Source of the DNA: Candidatus Latescibacterota bacterium
GTDB taxonomy: Bacteria; Latescibacterota; UBA2968; UBA8231
Reading direction: 5' to 3'
NCBI GenBank assembly: GCA_964291625.2
Contig: OZ220089.1
Span: 4,512,001-4,576,000, forward strand
DNA length: 64,000 bases
Position 1 is the stretch's first letter. Each line of letters starts with the position of its first letter. The notes beneath the pieces were generated by a model that was given only the letters and a program-made list of their open reading frames with translations, was not told the origin of the DNA and did not search any database. Positions 1 through 20,751 of the stretch are shown here, piece by piece. The position numbers and the translations under genes were made by a program.

Positions 1-651
1 CTGCACCTGGCCTACATGTGGCGCTACAACGCCGCCGTCCGCGAGCTGCTGCGCCTGGCCGCGGCCGGCGCCCTCGGGCAGATCTACCAGTTCCGGGGCC
101 ACATCCCCAAGCCGATGGGCTGGCATCGGCAGCTGGCCGAGGAGTTCACCGTCTACCACGGCGGCGTCTACTTCGAGATGGCGGGCCACCTCCTCGACCT
201 GATGGTCACCCTCATGGGGGAGCCCCTGCGCGTGCACCCGGCCCTGGCCTGCCACTACGGCGACCGGTCGGAGGTCGACAACGCGGTGGTCGTCCACGAG
301 TGCCGGGACGGGCTCGGCACGGTGGACACCACGGCGATGCAGATCGGCATGGACCGCCGCCTGGAGGTCCACGGCACCGCCGGCACGACCCTCCACGAGC
401 CCCTGGGCTCCGACGGCCTGCGCCTGTTCCTGAAAGACCCCGTGGACGGCTACCCCGCGGGGGAGTGGGTCACCGCCGACCGCGCCCGGGGCGAGGCCGA
501 TCCCACCCTGCTGCGGGAGCTGGCCGCCTGCATCCGCGGCGGCAAGGATCCCGACTACGGGGCGGACCACGACCTGGCCGTGCAGCGCACCCTGCTGGCC
601 GGCTGCGGGATCGCCGACGGCCACACCATGCGCAAGGAGCCGCCGTCCTGA
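1..651 (+). CDS. Gfo/Idh/MocA family oxidoreductase, 5'-partial (C-terminal part)
   Basis: Frame is open from base 1 (ctg cac ctg gcc tac atg); YMWRY..GALGQI and GGVYFEMAGHLLDL match the family C-terminal domain. Confidence 0.75.
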   Translation: MHLAYMWRYNAAVRELLRLAAAGALGQIYQFRGHIPKPMGWHRQLAEEFTVYHGGVYFEMAGHLLDLMVTLMGEPLRVHPALACHYGDRSEVDNAVVVHECRDGLGTVDTTAMQIGMDRRLEVHGTAGTTLHEPLGSDGLRLFLKDPVDGYPAGEWVTADRARGEADPTLLRELAACIRGGKDPDYGADHDLAVQRTLLAGCGIADGHTMRKEPPS

Positions 652-663
652 GGCCGCCGGGCC

Positions 664-3417
664 ATGGGTGAGTGGATCACGCGCGGCTTCGAGGCGTTCT
701 CCCGCGGGACCTGCGGCCACGCCGGGCAGAACCTCTACGTCTCCCGGGCCGGGGTCCTGCAGCGGATCTTCCACTTCGACCTGAACCTCGACGGTCACGC
801 CGACCTCGTCTTCTGTGACAGCCAGGACCACTGGGAGAAGCCGCCCGCCTCGGTGTACGTCGATCCCCTGGGGGAGCGCCGACTGGTGGAGCTGCCCGCG
901 GAGGGGGCGTGGTCGGGGGCGGTGGCCGACCTGACCGGCGATGGCCGCGACGATCTGGTGGTGGGCAACCACCACGACGGCATCCGCCGCGACCTGAACT
1001 CGACGATCTACTTCGGCTCGCCCGAGGGGTGGAGCGAGCGCTGCACCCAGCGCCTGCCGGCGCCCCTGACCACGGCCGTGGCCGCCGGCGACTTCGACGG
1101 GGACGGCCGCGTCGACCTGGCCTTCCTCTGCCGTCCCGACCCGGCCTCCGGGGCGCCGGCGGTGCGGCTCTTCCTCCAGACCGGTCTCGGCTTCGAGCCC
1201 AAGCGCTTCCGCGACCTGCCGCTGGCCGCTCCGGGGGGCCCGGCGGAGCAGCTCACTGCGGACGACCTCGACGGCGACGGCTGCGCCGACCTGCTGGTGC
1301 GCGGCGCCGACGGCTCGGCCCGGGTCTACTGGGGAGGCCCGGACGGCCTCGATCCCGGGTGCGCCGCCGACCTCGACGGGGCGGCCGGGTCCACTCCTCC
1401 TCCGCCTCCTTCACGCGACAGCGCCCGCGGGCACTCGTACGAGGAGTTCGTCGCCGACGCCCCGCCCCTGCCGGCGGTGGTCGACGACGGCGCCGGCGGA
1501 CGGTGGCTGTTCCTGCCGTCGCCCGAGGGGGCCTTCCTGGTGCCCGCCGGTCCGGACCGCTCCTTCGGTGAGCCTCGGGTCCTGCCCTGCGGGCGCCCCA
1601 TGGCCGCCGCCGCCGGGGACGTGGACGGCGACGGCCGCCCCGAGCTGGTGGTCGCCTGCCGGGAGGAGCGGCCGGAAGGGGACGCGGGCGGTCAGCGCTC
1701 GTGGCTGTACCGCCGCGCCGAGGGCCCCGGCTGGACGGAGGAGGGCCGCATCGCCCTGGCCACGGAGCGCGCCTGCGACGTGGCGGTGGCCGACCTCGAC
1801 GGCGACGGCCGCGCCGAGATCGCCTTCTGCCGGAACCACTCCGAGGAGGCGTACACCACCGAGTCGCTCCTCTACCGGGGCGGCCGGGAACCCGCGGAGG
1901 CGGCGCGGCTCACCACCCACGACGCCCGGCGGGTCCTGCCGGGCCGCGCCCGGGGCCCCGGAGGCCCGGTATGGCTGGCCTTCGTCAACCACTTCGCCGG
2001 ACCCCTTCCGGGCAGCCCGTCGGTGCGCGTCTACTGGGGAGGTCCGGAGGGCTTCGAGGCCGGCCGCCGCGCCGAGCCGCCGGCCTGGGGGGCGGTGGAG
2101 TCCCTGGCCGCCGACGTGGACGACGACGGCTGGCCGGACCTCGTCCTCGCCAACTGCTCGGAGAACTCGATCTGGCTCGATCCCGGCTCCTACGTCGTTC
2201 CATCCGGCCCCGGGGGGTTCGCCGGCACCCCGTCCCAGGTGCTGCCCACGACCCGCGCCCACGGGGTGGCCTGCGCCGACCTCGACCGCGACGGTTGGCT
2301 CGACCTCGTGTTCTGCGGCTTCGACAACCCCGAGCTGCTCATCTTCCGCGGAGGTCCGCGGGGGTTCGACACCGCCAACCCCGAGCGCCTGCGGCTGGAG
2401 TTCGACGGCGTCCTCTGCTCCGAGCCCCGCTGGGTCTACCTGGCCGACCTGAACCGGGACGGCTGGCTCGATCTCGTGGTGCCCGACATCGCCTCCGACC
2501 GCAGCGTCGTCCTGTGGGGCGGCCCCGGCGGCTTCGACATCGAACGCCGGCAGATGCTCTCCGTCTGGCACGCCGCCTGCGCCCGCGCCGCCGACCTCGA
2601 CGGCAACGGCTGGCTCGATCTCATCGTCGGCGGCCACCAGCCCTCGGCAGGCGAGCCCCACGACAGCTTCCTCTACATCTACTGGAACGGCCCCGAGGGC
2701 CTGTCCGAGAGCCGCCGCACCCTGCTGCCGGCGAGGGCCGTCAACGCCCTCGCCGTGGCCGACTTCGACGGCGACGGGCGCCTCGACATCTTCGCCTGCT
2801 CCTATCACGCCGGCCTGGAACGGGACGTCGACTCCTTTCTCTACTGGAACCGCGAGGGCCGGGGGTTCAGCGCCTCGGACCGGCAGCGACTGTTCACCCA
2901 TTCCGCCTCGGGATGCGTGGCCGCCGACTTCGACGGCGACGGACGCGTGGACCTGGCCATCGCCTATCACAAGGTCGAGGGACAACACGTGGGCGACTCG
3001 GCGGTCTGGTGGAACGGCGGGGAGGGGTTCGACGCGAAGCGGGTGACCCGCCTGCCCACGCGGGGGCCCCACGGCATGACGGCCATCGAGCCGGGGAACC
3101 AGGCCGACCGCGGTCCGGAGGAGCACTACGAGTCCGAGCCCTTCGAGCTGCCCCCGGGAACGCGGGCCCGGCGGATCGACTGGGAGGCCGAGGTGCCGGC
3201 CACCTGCCGGGTGCGGGCCCAGGTGCGCGCCGCGCCGACGCGGGAGGCCCTGGCCCGGGCGGCGTGGAGGGGGCGCGGCGGCGGCGGGGGCTGGCTCGAG
3301 TGCGGGGACGGGATCCAGGCGGGGCCCGGCGGCTGGCTGCAGTACCGGCTGGCCCTCGGCGCGCGCAACGGCTGCGGGACCCCGCGGGTCACGCAGGTCC
3401 GGGTGACCTGGCAGTAG
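664..3417 (+). CDS. FG-GAP/VCBS repeat beta-propeller protein
   Basis: 917 aa with about 12 D[LFV]xxDGxxD[LI]-type Ca-binding loops (e.g. DFDGDGRVDL, DLNRDGWLDL). Confidence 0.85.
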   Translation: MGEWITRGFEAFSRGTCGHAGQNLYVSRAGVLQRIFHFDLNLDGHADLVFCDSQDHWEKPPASVYVDPLGERRLVELPAEGAWSGAVADLTGDGRDDLVVGNHHDGIRRDLNSTIYFGSPEGWSERCTQRLPAPLTTAVAAGDFDGDGRVDLAFLCRPDPASGAPAVRLFLQTGLGFEPKRFRDLPLAAPGGPAEQLTADDLDGDGCADLLVRGADGSARVYWGGPDGLDPGCAADLDGAAGSTPPPPPSRDSARGHSYEEFVADAPPLPAVVDDGAGGRWLFLPSPEGAFLVPAGPDRSFGEPRVLPCGRPMAAAAGDVDGDGRPELVVACREERPEGDAGGQRSWLYRRAEGPGWTEEGRIALATERACDVAVADLDGDGRAEIAFCRNHSEEAYTTESLLYRGGREPAEAARLTTHDARRVLPGRARGPGGPVWLAFVNHFAGPLPGSPSVRVYWGGPEGFEAGRRAEPPAWGAVESLAADVDDDGWPDLVLANCSENSIWLDPGSYVVPSGPGGFAGTPSQVLPTTRAHGVACADLDRDGWLDLVFCGFDNPELLIFRGGPRGFDTANPERLRLEFDGVLCSEPRWVYLADLNRDGWLDLVVPDIASDRSVVLWGGPGGFDIERRQMLSVWHAACARAADLDGNGWLDLIVGGHQPSAGEPHDSFLYIYWNGPEGLSESRRTLLPARAVNALAVADFDGDGRLDIFACSYHAGLERDVDSFLYWNREGRGFSASDRQRLFTHSASGCVAADFDGDGRVDLAIAYHKVEGQHVGDSAVWWNGGEGFDAKRVTRLPTRGPHGMTAIEPGNQADRGPEEHYESEPFELPPGTRARRIDWEAEVPATCRVRAQVRAAPTREALARAAWRGRGGGGGWLECGDGIQAGPGGWLQYRLALGARNGCGTPRVTQVRVTWQ

Positions 3418-3499
3418 CCGGGCCGGTCGGTCCCGGGCCGCGTCTTGCCCTTCCGGGTCCCGGGCGCCCAACTTACCCGCACACCCGGGAGGAAGAGAG

Positions 3500-5068
3500 A
3501 TGCACAGACCGCGCCTGATCTACTACAACGACGCCCACCACTATCACGCCAAGCGCATCGAGCCGCCGGCGAGCCTGCACATGCTGCAGTGGCCGGTGGA
3601 CGAGCTGGCCGGCACCGGGGCCGACACCCTCGCCCTCGGCCTCGGCTACGGCGACGTGTTCTTCCACGACACCAGGGTGGGGCGCTCCGTGGGGCAGCGG
3701 AAGGAGACCTGGGAGTCGTACATCGACTGGCGCATCATGCGCATGGTCGAGGAGGGGCAGCGCCTGGGGACCGACCAGCTGCGGGCCTGCATCGAGCGCG
3801 GGAAGGAGCTGGGGGTGCGCGTCGTCCCGAGCCTGAAGCTGCAGGACTCGCACCAGCCCGGGGCGCAGCGCTGCGGCACCCTCAAGTGGGAGAAGGGCGC
3901 CGAGGTCAGCATCGGCGAGGAGGGCCGCCATCTCTTCGGGTACGACTACGCCCTCGCCGAGGTGCGCGACTACAAGCTCGCCCTGCTGCGGGAGATCCTC
4001 GAGGACTACGGCCCCCACGGCATCGAGCTCGACTTCCTCTTCGGCACCCAGTACTTCAAGAGCGGCGAGGAGCGCGCCGCCGAGATCATGAGCGGCTTCG
4101 TCGCCGACGTGCGCCGGCTCATGGACGAGACCACCCCGGACGGCGGGGAGCGGCTGCCCCTGATGGTGCGCGTCGATCTGAGCGAGGAAGCCAACCACGC
4201 GTCCAGGCTCGACGTGGCCGGCTGGCTCGAGGCCGGCAGCGTCGACCACGTCGTCGGCCAGGACGGCTGCATCCTCACCGACACCGAGCCGAAGCCCGGG
4301 TGGATGACGAAGGCGGCCAACGCCGCCGGCGCCGCCGCCTACTACCGGCCGCCGCGCCGGGTCTTCCACGAGGCCGTCCCCTTCATGCACATCGAGATGT
4401 GGCGGGCCCTGCAGCAGAGCCTGGTCCACGACGGCTGGGCCGGCCTCTACCACGGGTACATGCCCTGGCCCTTCGACGACGAGGAGTACTCCTTCCTGCG
4501 GGAGATGGCCTACCCGGAGACCACGGGGCGCCGCGACAAGCGCTACTTCCTGCAGCCGCGGGAGGGCGCCGCCGACGCCGAGACCACCACCCCCCACCGG
4601 GTGCTGCCCCTGACCCTGGAGGAGGGGGCGGTCCTGCGGGCGCCGGTCCACGTGGCCGACGACGTCGACGGGGCCCGCGCCGACGGCGAGATGCGCAAGC
4701 CGGTCCTCACCCTCCGCTTCCAGTTCTACTGCATCGAGGACGACGTGGAGATCCGCTTCAACGGCCAGGTCCTGGATCTCGACGACGCCGAGATCACCGA
4801 CGAACGCGCCCTGTTCTTCCCGGTGCGCTTCCACGGCGCCCAGGAGGTGCAGGTCCCCCTGGGCGGCTCCTTCCACTGGTTCCGCTTCCGGTTGCCGGCC
4901 GACAGCGTGCGCCGCGGCGAGAACCTGGTCGAGGTCGAGGTGAGGCGCCTGGAGCCGCGGGCCACCTTCACTCGCTCCCTGAGCGGCGTCGAGCTCTACA
5001 TGCGCTACCGCGACATGGAGCGGCCCCTCGGCCTGCAGCAGGACCGCATCGGACCCAAGTCGACGTGA
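3500..5068 (+). CDS. Hypothetical TIM-barrel protein, glycoside hydrolase-like (GHL10-like)
   Basis: GGAGG RBS upstream; RLIYYND start; DYALAEVRDYKLALLREILEDY..GIELDF segment; C-terminal beta-sandwich (RRGENLVEV). Confidence 0.6.
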   Translation: MHRPRLIYYNDAHHYHAKRIEPPASLHMLQWPVDELAGTGADTLALGLGYGDVFFHDTRVGRSVGQRKETWESYIDWRIMRMVEEGQRLGTDQLRACIERGKELGVRVVPSLKLQDSHQPGAQRCGTLKWEKGAEVSIGEEGRHLFGYDYALAEVRDYKLALLREILEDYGPHGIELDFLFGTQYFKSGEERAAEIMSGFVADVRRLMDETTPDGGERLPLMVRVDLSEEANHASRLDVAGWLEAGSVDHVVGQDGCILTDTEPKPGWMTKAANAAGAAAYYRPPRRVFHEAVPFMHIEMWRALQQSLVHDGWAGLYHGYMPWPFDDEEYSFLREMAYPETTGRRDKRYFLQPREGAADAETTTPHRVLPLTLEEGAVLRAPVHVADDVDGARADGEMRKPVLTLRFQFYCIEDDVEIRFNGQVLDLDDAEITDERALFFPVRFHGAQEVQVPLGGSFHWFRFRLPADSVRRGENLVEVEVRRLEPRATFTRSLSGVELYMRYRDMERPLGLQQDRIGPKST

Positions 5069-5973
5069 CCGCCCTCCCACAGCGGGAGATCGAGGCCCTG
5101 GGCGCCGCCTTCGACGGGCGCTTCGGCTTCTACGTGGAGGACCTCGCCTCCGGGGCCAGGGCCGCGGTCAACGCCGATCATCGCTTCCCCACGGCGAGCG
5201 TCTGCAAGGTGCCGGTCATGGTCGAGCTCTTCCGCCAGGCCGCGGCCGGGGAGCTGTCCCTCTGCGACCGCCGCCGGCTGGCCGGCCCCATCAGCACCCA
5301 CGGCTCCGGCGGCCTGGGCCTGGCCCATGACGAGCCCGAGCTGACCCTCCTCGACTACTGCCGCTTCATGATCTTCGTCAGTGACAACGTGGCCACCGAC
5401 ATGCTCATGGGGGTGGTGGGACTCGACAACGTGAACCGCACCATGGAAGGCCTCGGCTTCGGGGACCTGCGCACCAACAGCACCATGAGCCGCTACCACT
5501 ACGCCATGGTCGGCATGGCGGACCGGACCCCGAGTCCGGAGGCGGACGAGGAGATGGCGCGGCGAATGAAGGAGGAGGGCCTCGACTACGGCGCCTGGCC
5601 CTACCACGACGCGCCCGAGAACAACGTCGCCTCCCCGGCCCACATGGGCGCCCTGCTCAAGGCCCTCCACCAGGGCCGGGTGGTCGACGAGGCCGCCTCG
5701 GCACAGATGGTGGAGCTGCTGGAGAGCGGCCGCGACCGGCGCATGCTGCCCCGGCACGTCGACCCCGGCGTGGTGATCGCCCACAAGTACGGCTCCAGCG
5801 GACGGATCAAGGGAGACGTGGGCCTCCTGTTTCTGCCGTCGGGCCCGCTGGTGGCGGCCGGTTTCGCCACCGCCGCCAACGACGAGGCCGACGGCGCCGA
5901 GGTCATCGCCGAGGCCTGCCGACTGGCCGTGGAGAGCCTATCACCCGAAAGCGCAAAGGAGAGGGACGAGTGA
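5065..5973 (+). CDS. Serine hydrolase, class A beta-lactamase-like fold
   Basis: GTG start overlaps the upstream TGA (GTGA); FPTASVCK (SxxK), SDN, and AHKYG at the KTG position. Confidence 0.8.
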   Translation: MTALPQREIEALGAAFDGRFGFYVEDLASGARAAVNADHRFPTASVCKVPVMVELFRQAAAGELSLCDRRRLAGPISTHGSGGLGLAHDEPELTLLDYCRFMIFVSDNVATDMLMGVVGLDNVNRTMEGLGFGDLRTNSTMSRYHYAMVGMADRTPSPEADEEMARRMKEEGLDYGAWPYHDAPENNVASPAHMGALLKALHQGRVVDEAASAQMVELLESGRDRRMLPRHVDPGVVIAHKYGSSGRIKGDVGLLFLPSGPLVAAGFATAANDEADGAEVIAEACRLAVESLSPESAKERDE

Positions 5974-6797
5974 TTCGACTGAGCATGATGGCGCGCGAGG
6001 GGGCGGGAGCCCCCATCGACGAGACCGTGGACCTGGCCGCCGAGTTGGGCCTCGACGGGATCGACATCCACCTCTCGGGCCTGGACCGCGACCCGGAGCG
6101 GCTCAAGGCGATCCGCTGGCACTGCGTGCGCCGGGGCCTGACCATCGGCTACGCCGGCTCCGGCTCCTACGCCGGCCCCCCGGAGGAGAAGGAGCAGCGC
6201 CTGGCCCAGGGCCGGCAGGACGTGGACACGGCGGTGTTGCTGGGCGCCCAGATGCTGCGCGTCTTCGCCCGCGCCAAGTGGCCGGACAGCGTCGAGGAGC
6301 AGGAACGGCTGTGGGCGCCCATGGTGGCCAGCTTCGAGGAGCTGTCCGACTACGCCGCCGAGCGCGGCCTGATGCTGGCCCTGCAGAACCACGACGAGAG
6401 CAGCTTCTGCATGACCGCCAAACAGGCCCTGCGCATCCTGGGCGACGTGGACCGCCCCAACTTCCGGTTCCTCATGGACACGGGGCAGTGGAAGGGGGCG
6501 ATCGGTTCCCATGTCCGCGGGGAGTTCGACCCGGACGTCGACCTCTACGAGGACTACCTGCGGCCCACGGCGCCCCACGCGGTCTACGTGCGCGCCAAGA
6601 TCTACAAGATCGACGCCGGCCACGAGGAGTGGATCGACTACCCGCGGGTCGTCCGCCTGTTGCAGGAGGTCGGGTTCAACAGCAGCCTGGGCCTCGTCTT
6701 CGAGATCGGCGACCGCAACAGCTGCGGTTGGGAGGAGTGCGTCCGCCTCGCCGTGCGGCACCTGCGCCAGGTGCTCGACGAGGCCCAGGGAGGATGA
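5970..6797 (+). CDS. Sugar phosphate isomerase/epimerase (xylose isomerase-like TIM barrel)
   Basis: AAELGLDGIDI, LALQNHD, FLMDTGQW motifs; GTGA coupling to the previous gene. Confidence 0.8.
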   Translation: MIRLSMMAREGAGAPIDETVDLAAELGLDGIDIHLSGLDRDPERLKAIRWHCVRRGLTIGYAGSGSYAGPPEEKEQRLAQGRQDVDTAVLLGAQMLRVFARAKWPDSVEEQERLWAPMVASFEELSDYAAERGLMLALQNHDESSFCMTAKQALRILGDVDRPNFRFLMDTGQWKGAIGSHVRGEFDPDVDLYEDYLRPTAPHAVYVRAKIYKIDAGHEEWIDYPRVVRLLQEVGFNSSLGLVFEIGDRNSCGWEECVRLAVRHLRQVLDEAQGG

Positions 6798-7360
6798 CCG
6801 GCGGCTTCACCAGGAGCGGGGCGAGGGCGGTGGTCCCGCTCCTGGCCGCCGCGGTCGCGGCCCTGCTCGCCGGCTGCGGCTCCGATTCCGACAAGGGGGT
6901 TTCCGTCGACGAGCGGGCGCCGGCTTTCACCCTGCCCGCGGCGGACGGGACTTCCGTCTCCCTGGGCGACCTCCTCGAAGGCCGGGCGGCCGCGGTACTC
7001 GTGTTCTACCGCGGGTTCTTCTGAGGCTTCTGCAAGGCCCAGCTAGGTGAGCTGGCAGAGTCCCATCCCGCCTTCGTGGAGCGCGGCGTATCGCTCGCGG
7101 CGGTCAGCACCGACGACCTGGAGGACGCCCGCAACATGGCGGAGCTCAGCGGCGCCGGGTTCCCCATCCTCTCCGACGAGGACGGCGCGGTGGCCCGGGA
7201 CTACGGGGTCCACAACCTCCTGAACGACGGCGTCGCCGCGCCGTCGGCCTTCATCATCACGCCCGATCGCCGCATCGTCTGGAGGTTCGTGGGGGAGAGC
7301 ATCTCCGACCGCCCGGCGGTCGAGGAGATCCTGGCCCAGGTGGATGAGGTGGTGCGGTAG
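6794..7360 (+). CDS. Selenocysteine-containing peroxiredoxin-like (AhpC/TSA) lipoprotein, 188 aa, Sec at codon 77
   Basis: ATG 6794 (ATGA overlap); lipobox LAGC; APAFTLP..G..VSL; FYRGFF-TGA(7022-7024)-GFC, i.e. UxxC; frame continues to TAG 7360 with AVSTD, FPILSD, PSAFIITPD. Confidence 0.85.
7025..7063 (+). promoter_or_regulatory. Putative bacterial SECIS hairpin
   Basis: Lower stem TTCTGC(7028-33)/GCAGAG(7055-60); upper stem CAGCT(7040-44)/AGCTG(7050-54); G-containing loop AGGTG starting 20 nt after UGA. Confidence 0.7.
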
Positions 7361-7410
7361 TCGGCGCCGCACCCGACGGGTACTCTATGGGGCAATAGGA
7401 GGGATACGTC

Positions 7411-8598
7411 ATGCAATTCATCAAGCGTCTTCGCATGAGCGGACTGCTGTCGTTCCCTCCAGACATGGAGTCCTTCGAACTGCAGCCCCTGAACGTCCTC
7501 ATCGGTCCGAATGCCTCGGGGAAGACGAACCTCATCGAGGTATTGGAACTGCTGAGAGCGGCGCCAGGGGACTTTGCTGCCGCCATCCGGGACGGAGGCG
7601 GTGCCCTGGAGTGGCTGTGGAAGGGCAGTGGCTGGAAGTCTCCGCTTGCTCCAACCCTGGAAGTCGAGACAGGTTCGTATCGTGGGGTCAAAGGGCCTCT
7701 GAAGTATCGTCTCTCCTTCAGAGTCATGGGCCTCGAGGCTAGTATCCAGGAGGAGGTAATCGAGGAAGCAGGTCCGCAGGGAGAAGGGCAGCATTCCTAC
7801 TACAAGTTTCGTCAAGGGCGGCCGGTGATCAACATCCGCGTGCGGACGCATGGTGAAGAAACCGAGGAGAGAACGCTGCCATTGAACGAAAACTCCTTGG
7901 ATCAACCGGTTCTGGCGCAGCGTAGGGATCCGGATCTCTATCCCGAACTGTCGTGGCTCGCTTGGCAGTTTGGATCCATTCAGAGTTTCCGCGAATGGAG
8001 TTTCGGCCGGTACAGTGCTATACGACAGCCGCAACGCGCCGATCTTCAGGGACAGTGGCTGCTCCCCGACTCCAGCAATCTCGCCCTTGTGCTCAACCAG
8101 ATCGAGCACATGTCCGGTCCAGTGTTCAACGAACACCTGAAACGCTTCTTTCCCCGGTTCGAGCGCATGTCCACGGCGATATCGGGGGGCACGGTACAGT
8201 TCTACCTGCACGAGTCCGGCTTTCATCTACCCATTCCCTCGACCCGGCTTTCCGACGGTACCCTCCGCTTCATCGCCCTGCTGGCGACGCTGCTGTCCCC
8301 CCATCCGCCGCCGCTGGTCTGCATTGAGGAGCCGGAACTAGGGTTGCATCCCGATGCCGTGGCCATGCTCGCCGATCTACTAGTCGATGCTTCCAAGCGG
8401 ATGCAGCTTGTAGTCACGACCCACTCCGATGCCCTCGTGTCGGCCTTGACCGATCAGCCGGCATCCATCGTTGCCTGCGAGCGGCCAGGAGCCGGCACCG
8501 AGTTGCGACGGCTCGATCCCGAAAAGCTCGCCGGTTGGCTGAGTGAATACCGACTCGGCGACCTGTGGCGGATGGGGGAGCTTGGCGCCAATCCGTGA
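7411..8598 (+). CDS. AAA_21/ABC-type ATPase (SMC/AbiEii-like)
   Basis: Walker A LIGPNASGKTN, signature LSDGTLR, Walker B CIEEPELGLHP, VTTHS. Confidence 0.9.
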   Translation: MQFIKRLRMSGLLSFPPDMESFELQPLNVLIGPNASGKTNLIEVLELLRAAPGDFAAAIRDGGGALEWLWKGSGWKSPLAPTLEVETGSYRGVKGPLKYRLSFRVMGLEASIQEEVIEEAGPQGEGQHSYYKFRQGRPVINIRVRTHGEETEERTLPLNENSLDQPVLAQRRDPDLYPELSWLAWQFGSIQSFREWSFGRYSAIRQPQRADLQGQWLLPDSSNLALVLNQIEHMSGPVFNEHLKRFFPRFERMSTAISGGTVQFYLHESGFHLPIPSTRLSDGTLRFIALLATLLSPHPPPLVCIEEPELGLHPDAVAMLADLLVDASKRMQLVVTTHSDALVSALTDQPASIVACERPGAGTELRRLDPEKLAGWLSEYRLGDLWRMGELGANP

Positions 8599-9209
8599 GC
8601 GGCATCGCCATCTACATGGAAGGCGGGGGTACGGGCAAGGAGAACCGTGCAGCCCTGCGCCAGGGGATGGACGCCTTTCTACAGTCCCTCAAGGAAGCCG
8701 CCAGGAGCAAGGCTCTGCGTTGGAAGCTGGTCTGCTGCGGACCTCGCGATGAGGCATTCCGAGGATTCAGGAGTGCCGTCAACAACGGGGACAATGCGGT
8801 GAGTGTCCTGCTGGTGGATGCCGAGGGTTCGGTCAACCAGTTGCCCCGGGACCACCTGCAGAGCCGGGACAAATGGGATCTGAGTTTTTCCGAGGCGGAC
8901 TCCGTTCACCTCATGGTGCAGGCGATGGAGGCCTGGATCGTCGCCGACCCGGAGGCTCTCGCAGGATACTACGGGCAAGGCTTCGTGGAGCGGCAACTAC
9001 CCCGATCCGCGAACCTTGAGATCGTACAGAAAGCGGACTTGATGCGTGGGCTGGACAGAGCAACGAGAGGCACGTCCAAAGGGCGTTACCACAAGGGCAG
9101 ACATGCAAGCGATCTTCTGAAACGCGTTGATGCTGGCAAGGCGAGGGAGCGGTGCGCTCACTGCGAGCGGCTGTTTGAGATGCTCGGGGGAATGATCTCC
9201 ACGGTCTAA
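8595..9209 (+). CDS. DUF4276-like (TOPRIM-like) protein
   Basis: GTGA overlap with the ATPase; IYMEGGG, LLVDAE, MVQAMEAW.ADP and YHKG..HA motifs. Confidence 0.75.
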   Translation: MSGIAIYMEGGGTGKENRAALRQGMDAFLQSLKEAARSKALRWKLVCCGPRDEAFRGFRSAVNNGDNAVSVLLVDAEGSVNQLPRDHLQSRDKWDLSFSEADSVHLMVQAMEAWIVADPEALAGYYGQGFVERQLPRSANLEIVQKADLMRGLDRATRGTSKGRYHKGRHASDLLKRVDAGKARERCAHCERLFEMLGGMISTV

Positions 9210-9499
9210 GCCATCCGCCCCGGTAGTCCATCCGGATTCGTCCAGGTCGGAAGGTCCGTCCCCGTGGCTTCCGCATACAGGGTTTCGGGTGCAATGTCGA
9301 TCTCGTCGCCCCACGTCAAGACCCCAAGCTCCTTGTTGACGGTGAAGCTCCGAAAGAACTCGACATCCCGGAATCGCTCGAACACACCCCGCCTCTCCAG
9401 GTACCTTTCGAAGTCAACGACTCCGCGCTGGCCGTCGTCGAACTCCAACTCGATCAGATAGCCACCCCGATATACGGCCGAAACAACGTCGTGCAGCAT
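9206..9499 (-). CDS. DUF2442 domain protein (putative antitoxin)
   Basis: Y.IELEFDDGQRGVVDF...F..FRD...F....V......LTW..EIDIAPETLY. Confidence 0.8.
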   Translation of the reverse strand: MLHDVVSAVYRGGYLIELEFDDGQRGVVDFERYLERRGVFERFRDVEFFRSFTVNKELGVLTWGDEIDIAPETLYAEATGTDLPTWTNPDGLPGRMA

Positions 9500-9530
9500 T
9501 CTGCGATCGTTGGCCACGATACGTCAGACC

Positions 9531-19167: not shown

Positions 19168-20751
19168 TCACTTGAGCAGGGTCACCCGTCCCGCTGCGAT
19201 GAACCTCTCGCCGCAGACGAGGCGGTACACGTAGGTGCCGCTGGCCGCCGGGCGCCCCGTGCCGTCGCGGCCGTCCCAGGCGACGGCGTAAGCGCCTCCG
19301 CTCACCATCTCGTCGAAGAGGCGGCTCACCCGCCGGCCCGTCAGGTCGTGGACGTCCAGCCGCGCCGCCTGGCGCACCCCCTCCGGCACGGTGAAGCGGA
19401 TCGTCGTAGAGGGGTTGAAGGGGTTGGGAAAGGCCCGGTCCAGGGAGAAGCCCTCGGGCCGGGAGACGGAGAGCTCGCTGACGGCGGTGAGGTCGGGGCC
19501 GGTGTAGCGGATCACGTAGATCGCCCCGGAGTTGCGGTCCTCGTAACCGAGCCCGCCGCGGTTGGAGATGTCGGAGACGTAGAGCCGGTCGCCCGAGGAG
19601 AGCAGCCCGTCCAGGTGGCCCACGGCGGGCTCCTCGTTGCTGATGAAGTGGAAGTACTCCCGCGTCTCCAGGTCGACGTAGACCAGGGGGTTCTCCTCGT
19701 TGGCGCGGCCCCCCCGGAAGAACTGGCCGTGGAAGCCGACGAAGAGGCCGTTGTTGAGTCCGGGCGGGAACCCGGGCGGGGCGAAGGCGATCTCGTTGGG
19801 GCCCTCGGCCTCGGAGCCGGTGGCCGGGTCGGGCAGGGGCAGGAAGGCGACCAGGGGCGGGATGGCGCCGCCGCCGACGAACTCGCCGGTGCGGTAGGCG
19901 ATGTAGTGGTCGGGGAAGCCGAAGTCCTCGATCTCGCCGCCGATCTGGTCGTTGGGAATCATGTTGATCTCGTCGGCGCTGTGGGCCTCGATGGCGTTCT
20001 GCAGCCCGTCGATGCCGTTGTCCTCGAAGTAGAGGTCTCCCGTCTCGGGATGGAAGGCGAGCCCCGAGGCCGAGCGCAGGCCGGTGGCGATCTGGATCAC
20101 CTCGGCGTCGCTGATCGTCTCGCCGTCGAAGCGGAAGGTGAGGCGGTGGATGGCGTCGCAACCCAGGTCGGCGGAGAGGCCGAAGTCGCTGACGAGGGGG
20201 CGGGTCTGGGTGGTCCTGGCGAAGTTGACCGCCGAGCCGAGGGGGAAGAACAGCTCGTATCTCTCCCCGACCTGCCGCGCCGCCAGGGCCGAGTTCGGGT
20301 GCAGGAGCGAGGCGTCGTTGAGGTCGATGCGGCCCACCTGGGTGATCTCGTAGTCGGGCGCCGGGCCCATGCGCAGGATGAGGATCGGCTGCCCCTGGCC
20401 GGTGACGAAGAGCAGGTCGCCGGCCCGGTCGAGGGCCGTGGGACCGCCCACGGCCAGCTCCTCCTCGAGCCGGATCCAGCGGTCGGCGATGGCGTCGCCG
20501 TCGTCGTCGACGAGGCGCAGGAGGCTCCCCGAGGCGCTGCCGAAGAGGGTGGGGCCGTTGGCCACGGCGGTGAGGATCGAGCCGTCGTCCAGCTCGGCCA
20601 TGCCCACGGGGAAGTTGAGGCCGCCGGCGTAGGTGGTGATGGTGAAGTCCTCCGGCTTCACCCGCGGGTCGCCGCCGATCTCGAACTGGGCGCCGGCGGG
20701 CCCCGCCAGAAAGACGGCGGCCGTCAGGAGGGAGAGGGAGAGAGGGTGCAT
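19168..20751 (-). CDS. Glucose/sorbosone dehydrogenase-like beta-propeller with FlgD-Ig/T9SS-like CTD
   Basis: Signal peptide MHPLSLSLLTAAVFLAGPAGA; ATGLRSASGLAFHP.TGDLY...NG.D; DEIN; DFGFP; AFPNPFNPSTTI...WDGRD. Confidence 0.75.
   Translation of the reverse strand: MHPLSLSLLTAAVFLAGPAGAQFEIGGDPRVKPEDFTITTYAGGLNFPVGMAELDDGSILTAVANGPTLFGSASGSLLRLVDDDGDAIADRWIRLEEELAVGGPTALDRAGDLLFVTGQGQPILILRMGPAPDYEITQVGRIDLNDASLLHPNSALAARQVGERYELFFPLGSAVNFARTTQTRPLVSDFGLSADLGCDAIHRLTFRFDGETISDAEVIQIATGLRSASGLAFHPETGDLYFEDNGIDGLQNAIEAHSADEINMIPNDQIGGEIEDFGFPDHYIAYRTGEFVGGGAIPPLVAFLPLPDPATGSEAEGPNEIAFAPPGFPPGLNNGLFVGFHGQFFRGGRANEENPLVYVDLETREYFHFISNEEPAVGHLDGLLSSGDRLYVSDISNRGGLGYEDRNSGAIYVIRYTGPDLTAVSELSVSRPEGFSLDRAFPNPFNPSTTIRFTVPEGVRQAARLDVHDLTGRRVSRLFDEMVSGGAYAVAWDGRDGTGRPAASGTYVYRLVCGERFIAAGRVTLLK

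Follow-up and report, generated by a model that had tools for sequence, protein, structure and literature searches.

Selenocysteine-containing redoxins of bacteria include the Prx-like thiol:disulfide oxidoreductases, a listed family of PF00578 proteins with a UxxC or UxxU motif and a predicted function (PMC13188914, PMC9312934), for which the GOS study reported 225 'Prx-like 1' sequences (PMC2398784). Signal peptides or lipoproteins are not mentioned for this family in the available portions of these three sources, and those of PMC8318568, PMC12013277 and PMC10444878 add nothing further on it. Exported or lipoprotein selenoproteins of bacteria have already been described in the SAO system (SaoB, SaoC and SaoX; bioRxiv 2022.07.06.499078), with CU motifs and folds unrelated to that of the protein treated here. 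Two other described proteins are TlpA, which keeps the copper-binding cysteines of ScoI and CoxB reduced ahead of copper insertion (PMC6669012), and PrxL of Caulobacter, an exported Prx-like protein without the peroxiredoxin triad, which is kept reduced by ScsB and has no detectable peroxidase activity (PMC3322552).

Here we analyzed a stretch of 64,000 nucleotides from a Latescibacterota genome (the window) and found in it a gene for a selenoprotein of the already published Prx-like family, not a new kind of protein. It shares with the UxxC members of that family the domain, the motif and the position of the SECIS element, and differs from them in its host lineage, Latescibacterota. A sequence listed after the '#Prx-like 1' header of Dataset S1 of the GOS study, JCVI_READ_852987, shows by eye FYRGYF-U-GIC, QLGEL, GVAAP and a lipobox-like N-terminus, and it resembles the database protein P0020, which is 38% identical to the window protein. 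An earlier note on this DNA had stated that AhpC/TSA-like proteins with selenocysteine are known in bacteria, which is borne out by the published family and by this same-subfamily sequence from 2008. Since both the class and the subfamily sequence were on record, a selenium specialist would not be surprised by the gene. What is added is evidence for selenocysteine use in Latescibacterota, of which we found no earlier report; a SECIS element inside the coding region with unusually clean covariation support; evidence for membrane anchoring as a trait of the family; and a testable lead to the maturation of copper and heme proteins. Annotation misses the gene: every short database record examined is split, so that this widespread marine redox enzyme is stored in two pieces.

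The locus has the following features.

6794 to 7360, plus strand: predicted selenoprotein gene, Prx-like (AhpC/TSA, PF00578), 188 residues by read-through of one UGA
6794 to 6797, plus strand: ATGA overlap of the start codon with the stop of the upstream gene, from the sequence
6794 to 6877, plus strand: predicted lipoprotein signal peptide, by sequence heuristic
6866 to 6877, plus strand: predicted lipobox LAGC, residues 25-28, with Cys28 at 6875-6877, by sequence heuristic
7022 to 7024, plus strand: in-frame TGA, codon 77, predicted selenocysteine and U of UxxC, from TGA/Cys comparisons
7031 to 7033, plus strand: Cys80, second residue of UxxC, its codon being TGC or TGT in 81 of 81 rows
7039 to 7055, plus strand: predicted SECIS apical hairpin, +18 to +34, from family covariation and published SECIS criteria
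7241 to 7243, plus strand: Pro150, in the thioredoxin-type cis-Pro position where peroxiredoxins have their catalytic Arg, by alignment with 2cx3 and 4nmu

The 188-codon frame contains a single internal stop, the TGA of codon 77, and the two open reading frame fragments pointed out in the earlier note are indeed one frame split by this triplet. In the translated product the codon takes the place of the first Cys of the motif, FYRGFF-U-GFC (U77-G-F-C80), again as had been claimed, and the Pfam AhpC-TSA domain is matched unbroken across it (residues 38-163, 103.6 bits, cut-off 26). A PF00578 match above the cut-off together with UxxC is what defines the Prx-like thiol:disulfide oxidoreductase family, and the protein has both; no NCBIfam model reaches its cut-off for the read-through protein. 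The start at 6794 is also used by the database halves P0296 and P0028. The upstream gene (5970-6797) encodes a sugar-phosphate isomerase/epimerase-like protein (PF01261), and the ATGA overlap suggests that translation of the selenoprotein gene may be coupled to it.

Homologues speak for a sense reading of codon 77. In a set of 164 (14 from one search plus the best 150 from another), 140 align over residue 77, and the column holds Cys in 119 of them, as the earlier note had expected, with Ser in 10, Thr in 7, Trp in 2, Asp in 1 and Asn in 1; the remaining 24 are mostly fragments that stop at the motif or start just past it. A search among short proteins gave 107 matches, of which 86 have FYRGFF as their very last residues, 20 represent the C-terminal half and one is truncated in another way. 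None of the 107 spans the codon, and the gene is stored as two small proteins, which is the mishandling by annotation pipelines that had been predicted. The 86 N-terminal halves have the identical stop position at 62-97% identity. Genome relatives were found with a pattern taken from the C-terminal half, so that the scan was blind to codon 77. In the best 80 of the 206 relatives found, codon 77 is TGA in all 80 loci and never TAA, TAG or a Cys codon, and the genuine terminal stops differ (TAG in 50, TGA in 21 and TAA in 4 of 75 single-domain rows). This recurrence, together with the Cys column, upholds the proposal of a selenocysteine-type UGA in a UxxC motif. For the window gene and L001, the relative nearest to it among the genomes, dN/dS is 0.18 before and 0.32 after the TGA; dN is also below dS for both halves in all 13 of the sister pairs picked by hand, with the sequences compared ungapped and two downstream values probably inflated. 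Purifying selection is indicated for both halves of the gene. A UGA aligned to Cys and coding conservation on both sides of it, the two tests applied to bacterial selenoproteins, are both found here.

The SECIS element gives a second line of evidence. According to the available parts of PMC13188914 (Fig 2), a bacterial SECIS has an apical loop of 3-9 nt and a stem of 4-16 bp and lies 16-37 nt from the UGA, with a G in the first two loop positions followed by G or U, and a folding energy of at most -7.5 kcal/mol. The window hairpin falls within all four criteria, with a 20-nt spacing, a 5-nt loop (7045-7049), a 6-bp stem and -8.5 to -9.2 kcal/mol; its second loop position (7046) is G and so is the next base. 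Across the family, the loop has G at +25 in 77 of 78 sequences and G or U at +26 in 75 of 78. The hairpin with a G-containing apical loop reported in the earlier note is therefore upheld, but its placing right after the TGA is not, since it begins 14 nt after the UGA.

Corrected mutual information, computed for 3,741 pairs of columns over 78 distinct blocks of 90 nt, served as the measure of covariation. The top pair is +21:+31, which joins the third base of Gln83 to the first base of Leu87 and is synonymous on both sides; its states are G-C in 51 blocks, A-U in 19, G-U in 7 and a mismatch in 1. Three other pairs of the same helix, +18:+34, +24:+28 and +22:+30, rank 2, 4 and 7, and the RNAalifold consensus is exactly the covarying 7-pair helix. 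Its cells are paired in 94.6%, a level reached by none of 500 shuffles, with slid controls at 13-43%. Codon bias does not explain the covariation at +21:+31, since TTG stands at codon 87 in each of the 20 rows that have CAA at codon 83, whereas the share of TTG in the rest of these genes is 22.5%, and the GC content of the loci is the same (0.61 vs 0.62). The window (G-C, at 7042:7052) and L001 (A-U) themselves differ by a compensatory change at this pair. Parsimony requires 11 changes at the Gln site; a tree-independent test is underpowered and stays below significance because only 5 pairs lie on well-supported branches (about 3.4 concordant, 0 discordant, p 0.125-0.5). The predicted SECIS structure is conserved by covariation at synonymous sites.

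In single-sequence folding, the window hairpin is no stabler than shuffles (z 0.33, 0.19, 0.93, -0.02 and 1.73). When folding starts at the UGA, another structure wins and the conserved helix, which is not the minimum-energy one, has a pair probability of about 0.2. A ribosome at the UGA is assumed to cover the first 9 or more bases, and for this reason these were omitted from further folds; the conserved helix is then dominant in the window (0.7-0.99) and, for +13 to +50, in 76 of 81 rows. A conserved lower stem below the apical hairpin was looked for and not found. The family SECIS model run over the window gave no second element (next best 12.9 bits, E 0.05). Likewise, a codon-score scan of the 413 TGA sites with open flanks in the window gave no second candidate selenoprotein; the three sites with a higher rank in that scan resemble normal ends of genes, after which another gene or strand begins.

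The rare codons CTA GGT in the hairpin had also been taken as a trace of RNA constraint. Their rarity was confirmed (2 CTA among 632 Leu codons, 35 GGT among 672 and 6 GCA among 754), and by codon score the 13-codon stretch ranks within the lowest 0.9% of the 6,346 reference windows; codons 41-53 of the same gene score nearly as low. Their conservation was not, as CTA stands at codon 84 in 4 and GGT at codon 85 in 7 of 81 rows. CTA GGT is thus ruled out as a conserved signal, and it is the base pairs that are conserved instead.

On this comparative evidence, UGA codon 77 is almost certainly recoded as selenocysteine, and we regard two other accounts of the codon as highly improbable. By one of them, the UGA would be read as a different residue, that is, as Trp or Gly by a variant code, or as Cys. 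Trp does occupy the selenocysteine position in the database homologues P0020 and P0025, yet it is best explained as TGA translated by the gene caller's alternative code, because the related low-GC loci L032, L042 and L070 have TGA. Moreover, 130 Trp codons of the window are TGG, long full-length genes run without internal TGA, many genes end in TGA, and only recoding of the SECIS type explains the conserved hairpin. By the other account, we would be dealing with a pseudogene, a sequencing error, a truly split gene or a copy taken up by a host without selenocysteine machinery. It is true that databases store the gene as two short proteins, that no such machinery was seen in the 64-kb window and that the accessible literature yielded nothing on selenocysteine use in Latescibacterota. 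Nevertheless, the same stop recurs in the 86 database halves and in 80 of 80 genome loci (best 80 of 206), always as TGA, and the window and L001 are separated by a compensatory change in the hairpin; the recurrent TGA and the purifying selection on both halves make error, pseudogene or split gene very unlikely.

The N-terminus of the recoded protein starts with two Arg, continues with hydrophobic residues, whose mean hydropathy over 15 positions rises to 2.6, and ends in LAGC, which by heuristic is the lipoprotein pattern of basic N-region, hydrophobic stretch and lipobox Cys. A simple heuristic applied to the 81 rows finds a lipobox in 64, an atypical lipobox in 5 and a hydrophobic anchor without Cys in 8, so that a lipobox or membrane anchor is present in 77; the 4 rows without one are long fusions. 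Among the N-terminal database halves, 84 of 86 have a lipobox by pattern match. These counts lend support to the predicted exported lipoprotein of the earlier note and are evidence for membrane anchoring as a family-wide trait. Given the motif and its conservation, the protein very probably leaves the cytoplasm, carries its lipid on Cys28 and sits on the outer side of a membrane.

The structure model (pLDDT 90 overall and about 98 for residues 41-188) is closest in fold to the true peroxiredoxins Bcp4 and AhpE, not to TlpA/ResA (TM 0.71-0.75 by query length; rmsd 1.7-2.0 Å at TM about 0.75 to AhpE/Bcp4), and the best sequence match is BCP 2cx3. The overall fold is that of BCP/PrxQ, AhpE and PrxU (TxxU), with Cys80 aligned to the peroxidatic Cys. 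Unlike true peroxiredoxins, the window protein lacks PxxxT/SxxC and the catalytic Arg, and has its selenocysteine at the first and not at the peroxidatic position. Of the triad as described in PMC3514251, the Pro position holds Gly, the Thr position selenocysteine and the Arg position Pro. Membership in the peroxiredoxins, which takes PxxxT/SxxC(U) plus the catalytic Arg, fails on GFF-U-GF-C and on Pro150, and the peroxiredoxin NCBIfam models all score far below cut-off (PrxU, 46 of 270 bits). Pro150 aligns with the Arg of BCP 2cx3 and with the Pro of ResA 4nmu, and at the same offset 78 of 81 rows have Pro. With TlpA, ResA and CcmG, the protein has in common a membrane anchor, a redox pair spaced by two residues and the cis-Pro proline (ResA 4nmu, E 1e-10), whereas its fold is nearer to peroxiredoxins, FYRG replaces NFWA and selenocysteine replaces the first Cys; scores on the ResA/DsbE models are below the NCBIfam cut-offs (NF002854, 52/170; TIGR00385, 23/123). 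The best NCBIfam match is the SelL-related redox protein NF040769 (67.4 bits, below the cut-off of 120). PRX_like2 (cd02970) is fitted by verbal description only, as a CxxC type without the rest of the Prx triad, and the available text of the same source deduces, without experiment, that PRX_like proteins are not disulfide oxidoreductases (PMC3514251). PrxL belongs to a different CDD family from the window protein.

Because 79 of 81 rows have no Cys other than Cys80 in the mature domain, the working unit would be U77-C80, and the absence of the catalytic Pro, Thr and Arg makes thiol-disulfide exchange outside the cell the likeliest chemistry. Delivery of Sec-tRNA by SelB at a SECIS element is established. 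In the mechanism we propose, SelB on the hairpin 20 nt downstream would bring Sec-tRNA to UGA codon 77, and the signal peptide would direct the export of the chain, which would then receive its lipid at Cys28 and be anchored on the outer side of a membrane. There, U77-x-x-C80 would alternate between selenol/thiol and selenenylsulfide, reducing or reshuffling the disulfides of envelope proteins with electrons that presumably come from a CcdA/DsbD-type membrane protein; a scan of 106 + 25 proteins from the neighbourhoods (106 out of 207 picked clusters) gave no CcdA/DsbD match. By analogy, it is rather probable that U77-C80 reduces or reshuffles disulfides in the manner of TlpA, ResA and CcmG on a peroxiredoxin-like fold. 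The explanation as a whole, that is, an intact selenoprotein gene whose product is an exported lipoprotein and a disulfide reductase or reshuffler, we consider probable.

The main rival takes the same selenoprotein for a surface peroxidase, in which Sec77 would attack H2O2 or lipid peroxides and Cys80 would resolve. It draws on the ready reaction of selenols with peroxides, on the proximity to BCP and AhpE in fold (TM 0.71-0.75) and to BCP 2cx3 in sequence, and on Arg73, which is invariant ahead of the motif. Envelope peroxidases are also known, such as PprX (PMC3322552). However, the triad is replaced by Gly, Sec and Pro, the known selenocysteine peroxiredoxins carry TxxU and not UxxC (PMC13188914), and PrxL is without peroxidase activity (PMC3322552), so that a peroxidase seems unlikely. 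A different proposal keeps the chemistry aside and has the protein serve the upstream catabolic genes (oxidoreductase, FG-GAP protein, glycosidase-like protein, serine hydrolase and epimerase), and the earlier note had placed the gene as translationally coupled to the end of a catabolic operon. The co-oriented run from 16 to 7360 with its short gaps, the ATGA overlap and the lack of a plus-strand terminator-like site agree with this proposal; in 1-9600 of the window we found neither a promoter-like site nor a plus-strand terminator. Nevertheless, none of the window open reading frames within 6 kb clusters with those of the 80 loci (best 80 of 206, relatives at 80-97% identity being outside the comparison), and even the Latescibacterota relative, L001, sits between unrelated genes (Uma2-type and AlbA-type). 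The overlap stands and the functional tie is unsupported: since its neighbours recur in none of the 80 loci, the link to the catabolic operon looks incidental, and we hold service to these genes to be improbable.

For the preferred reading, disulfide reduction or reshuffling in the envelope, possible clients come from the neighbours of relatives. Most neighbourhoods among the best 80 of the 206 relatives are unrelated to one another. Co-oriented CopC/CopD-cytochrome c, CtaG or CcmB/C genes lie within 4 kb in 9 of these 80 loci, rising to 17 if a weakly matched cupredoxin-like gene is counted, and the loci with copper or heme neighbours sit on several separate tree branches. For the other 63 loci and for the window, the set of reference genes tested shows no neighbour related to copper or heme. 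The L045 operon reads ccmE, ccmF, ccmH, two unknown genes, a ccmA-like ABC ATPase gene, ccmB, ccmC, the selenoprotein gene and ctaG; L035 and L047 share its ccmB-ccmC-selenoprotein-ctaG part, and the three are for this reason counted as one event. No other redoxin or CcmG-like gene was found in the L045 operon by tblastn with the selenoprotein. Several further lineages have the gene placed between CopC/CopD-cytochrome c and cupredoxin-like genes. CcmG acts in heme attachment. This association with copper and heme maturation is a lead, not a result. Tentatively, the likeliest clients may be cysteine pairs that need reduction before copper or heme binding. It is equally speculative that the subfamily might be a selenium counterpart of CcmG/TlpA, exported and reducing the cysteine pairs found in apo-cytochromes c and in copper proteins of SAR202/Dehalococcoidia and, once transferred, of Latescibacterota; if so, this would be the first concrete role for a large uncharacterised selenoprotein family and would tie the assembly of the respiratory chain to selenium supply. 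The accessible literature outside subscription papers, searched for a selenoprotein link to CcmG, CopC or cytochrome c biogenesis and for SAR202/Chloroflexota selenoproteomes, does not describe this neighbourhood.

Searches of the 64-kb window with E. coli SelA, SelB and SelD (tblastn), ARAGORN and Rfam gave no selA, selB, selD or tRNA-Sec, nor any tRNA or Rfam match, and ARAGORN gave no tRNA-Sec in the loci. Over the window and 1.39 Mb of loci, tblastn gave a single match, SelB in L013, where selB (18671-20437; TIGR00475, 322 bits, cut-off 242) lies about 8.5 kb from the selenoprotein gene. Two Dehalococcoidia are among the ten most selenoprotein-rich genomes of BSepDB (PMC13326102), and this database may already include the present genes in its online tables. 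Among the best 80 of the 206 relatives, the nearest, L001, is from Latescibacterota and the other 79 are from Chloroflexota. Five taxon-named homologues of a neighbouring window gene belong to Latescibacterota (four) and Gemmatimonadota (one), and the named close database halves to Gemmatimonadetes/Gemmatimonadaceae (3) and Poribacteria (1). A tree built by a quick method (146 columns, unrooted) joins the window gene and L001 (SH-aLRT 91, unstarred). Gene transfer among these phyla is plausible, and such an unrooted tree gives no donor or direction.

Several variants of the gene were observed among the relatives. Two-domain forms with two in-frame TGAs occur in L053 (10103 and 10625), L055, L062, L074 and L072 (9371 and 10124); the TGAs are 522 or 753 nt apart with no stop between them and the same hairpin after each, and the products are predicted to be two-Sec proteins. 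In L046 (9348), L057 (9360) and L063 (9360), a separate paralogue, which has its own TGA and hairpin, is encoded in a different frame about 750-815 nt upstream. The Anaerolineae/Caldilineae loci L050, L061, L073 (8837-10210) and L079 have forms that carry a long extension at the N-terminus; in L061 and L073 this extension contains a TlpA-like redoxin domain with WCxxC, which precedes the Sec domain in the fusion. A recurrent Dehalococcoidia cluster surrounds the gene in L002 (4409-10000), L005, L006-L011, L014, L019, L025, L028 and L066. Its uncharacterised products, of about 136, 200, 243 and 510 aa, are exported or membrane proteins that have His close to the N-terminus and no Pfam match; CopC/CopD-cytochrome c or cupredoxin-like genes also belong to the cluster.

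Other genes of the window also deserve a record. Upstream, 3500-5068 encodes 522 aa without Pfam or NCBIfam match and with 274 homologues at E<=0.001, a few of which carry the glycoside-hydrolase-like PF02638 or PF14871. The gene at 5065-5973 encodes a class A beta-lactamase-like serine hydrolase (PF13354, 176 bits) that falls under every NCBIfam beta-lactamase cut-off and is probably a catabolic hydrolase. Directly 3' of the selenoprotein gene, 7411-10547 contains an AAA_21 ATPase, DUF4276 and more genes with GC3 of about 0.7 against about 0.95 upstream; it looks like an inserted block, possibly of toxin-antitoxin or defence type. On the minus strand, 13057-18054 encodes 1,665 aa, which by eye we take to comprise a peptidase M60-like N-terminal part, WD40-like and Ig-like repeats and a C-terminal sorting-type tail.
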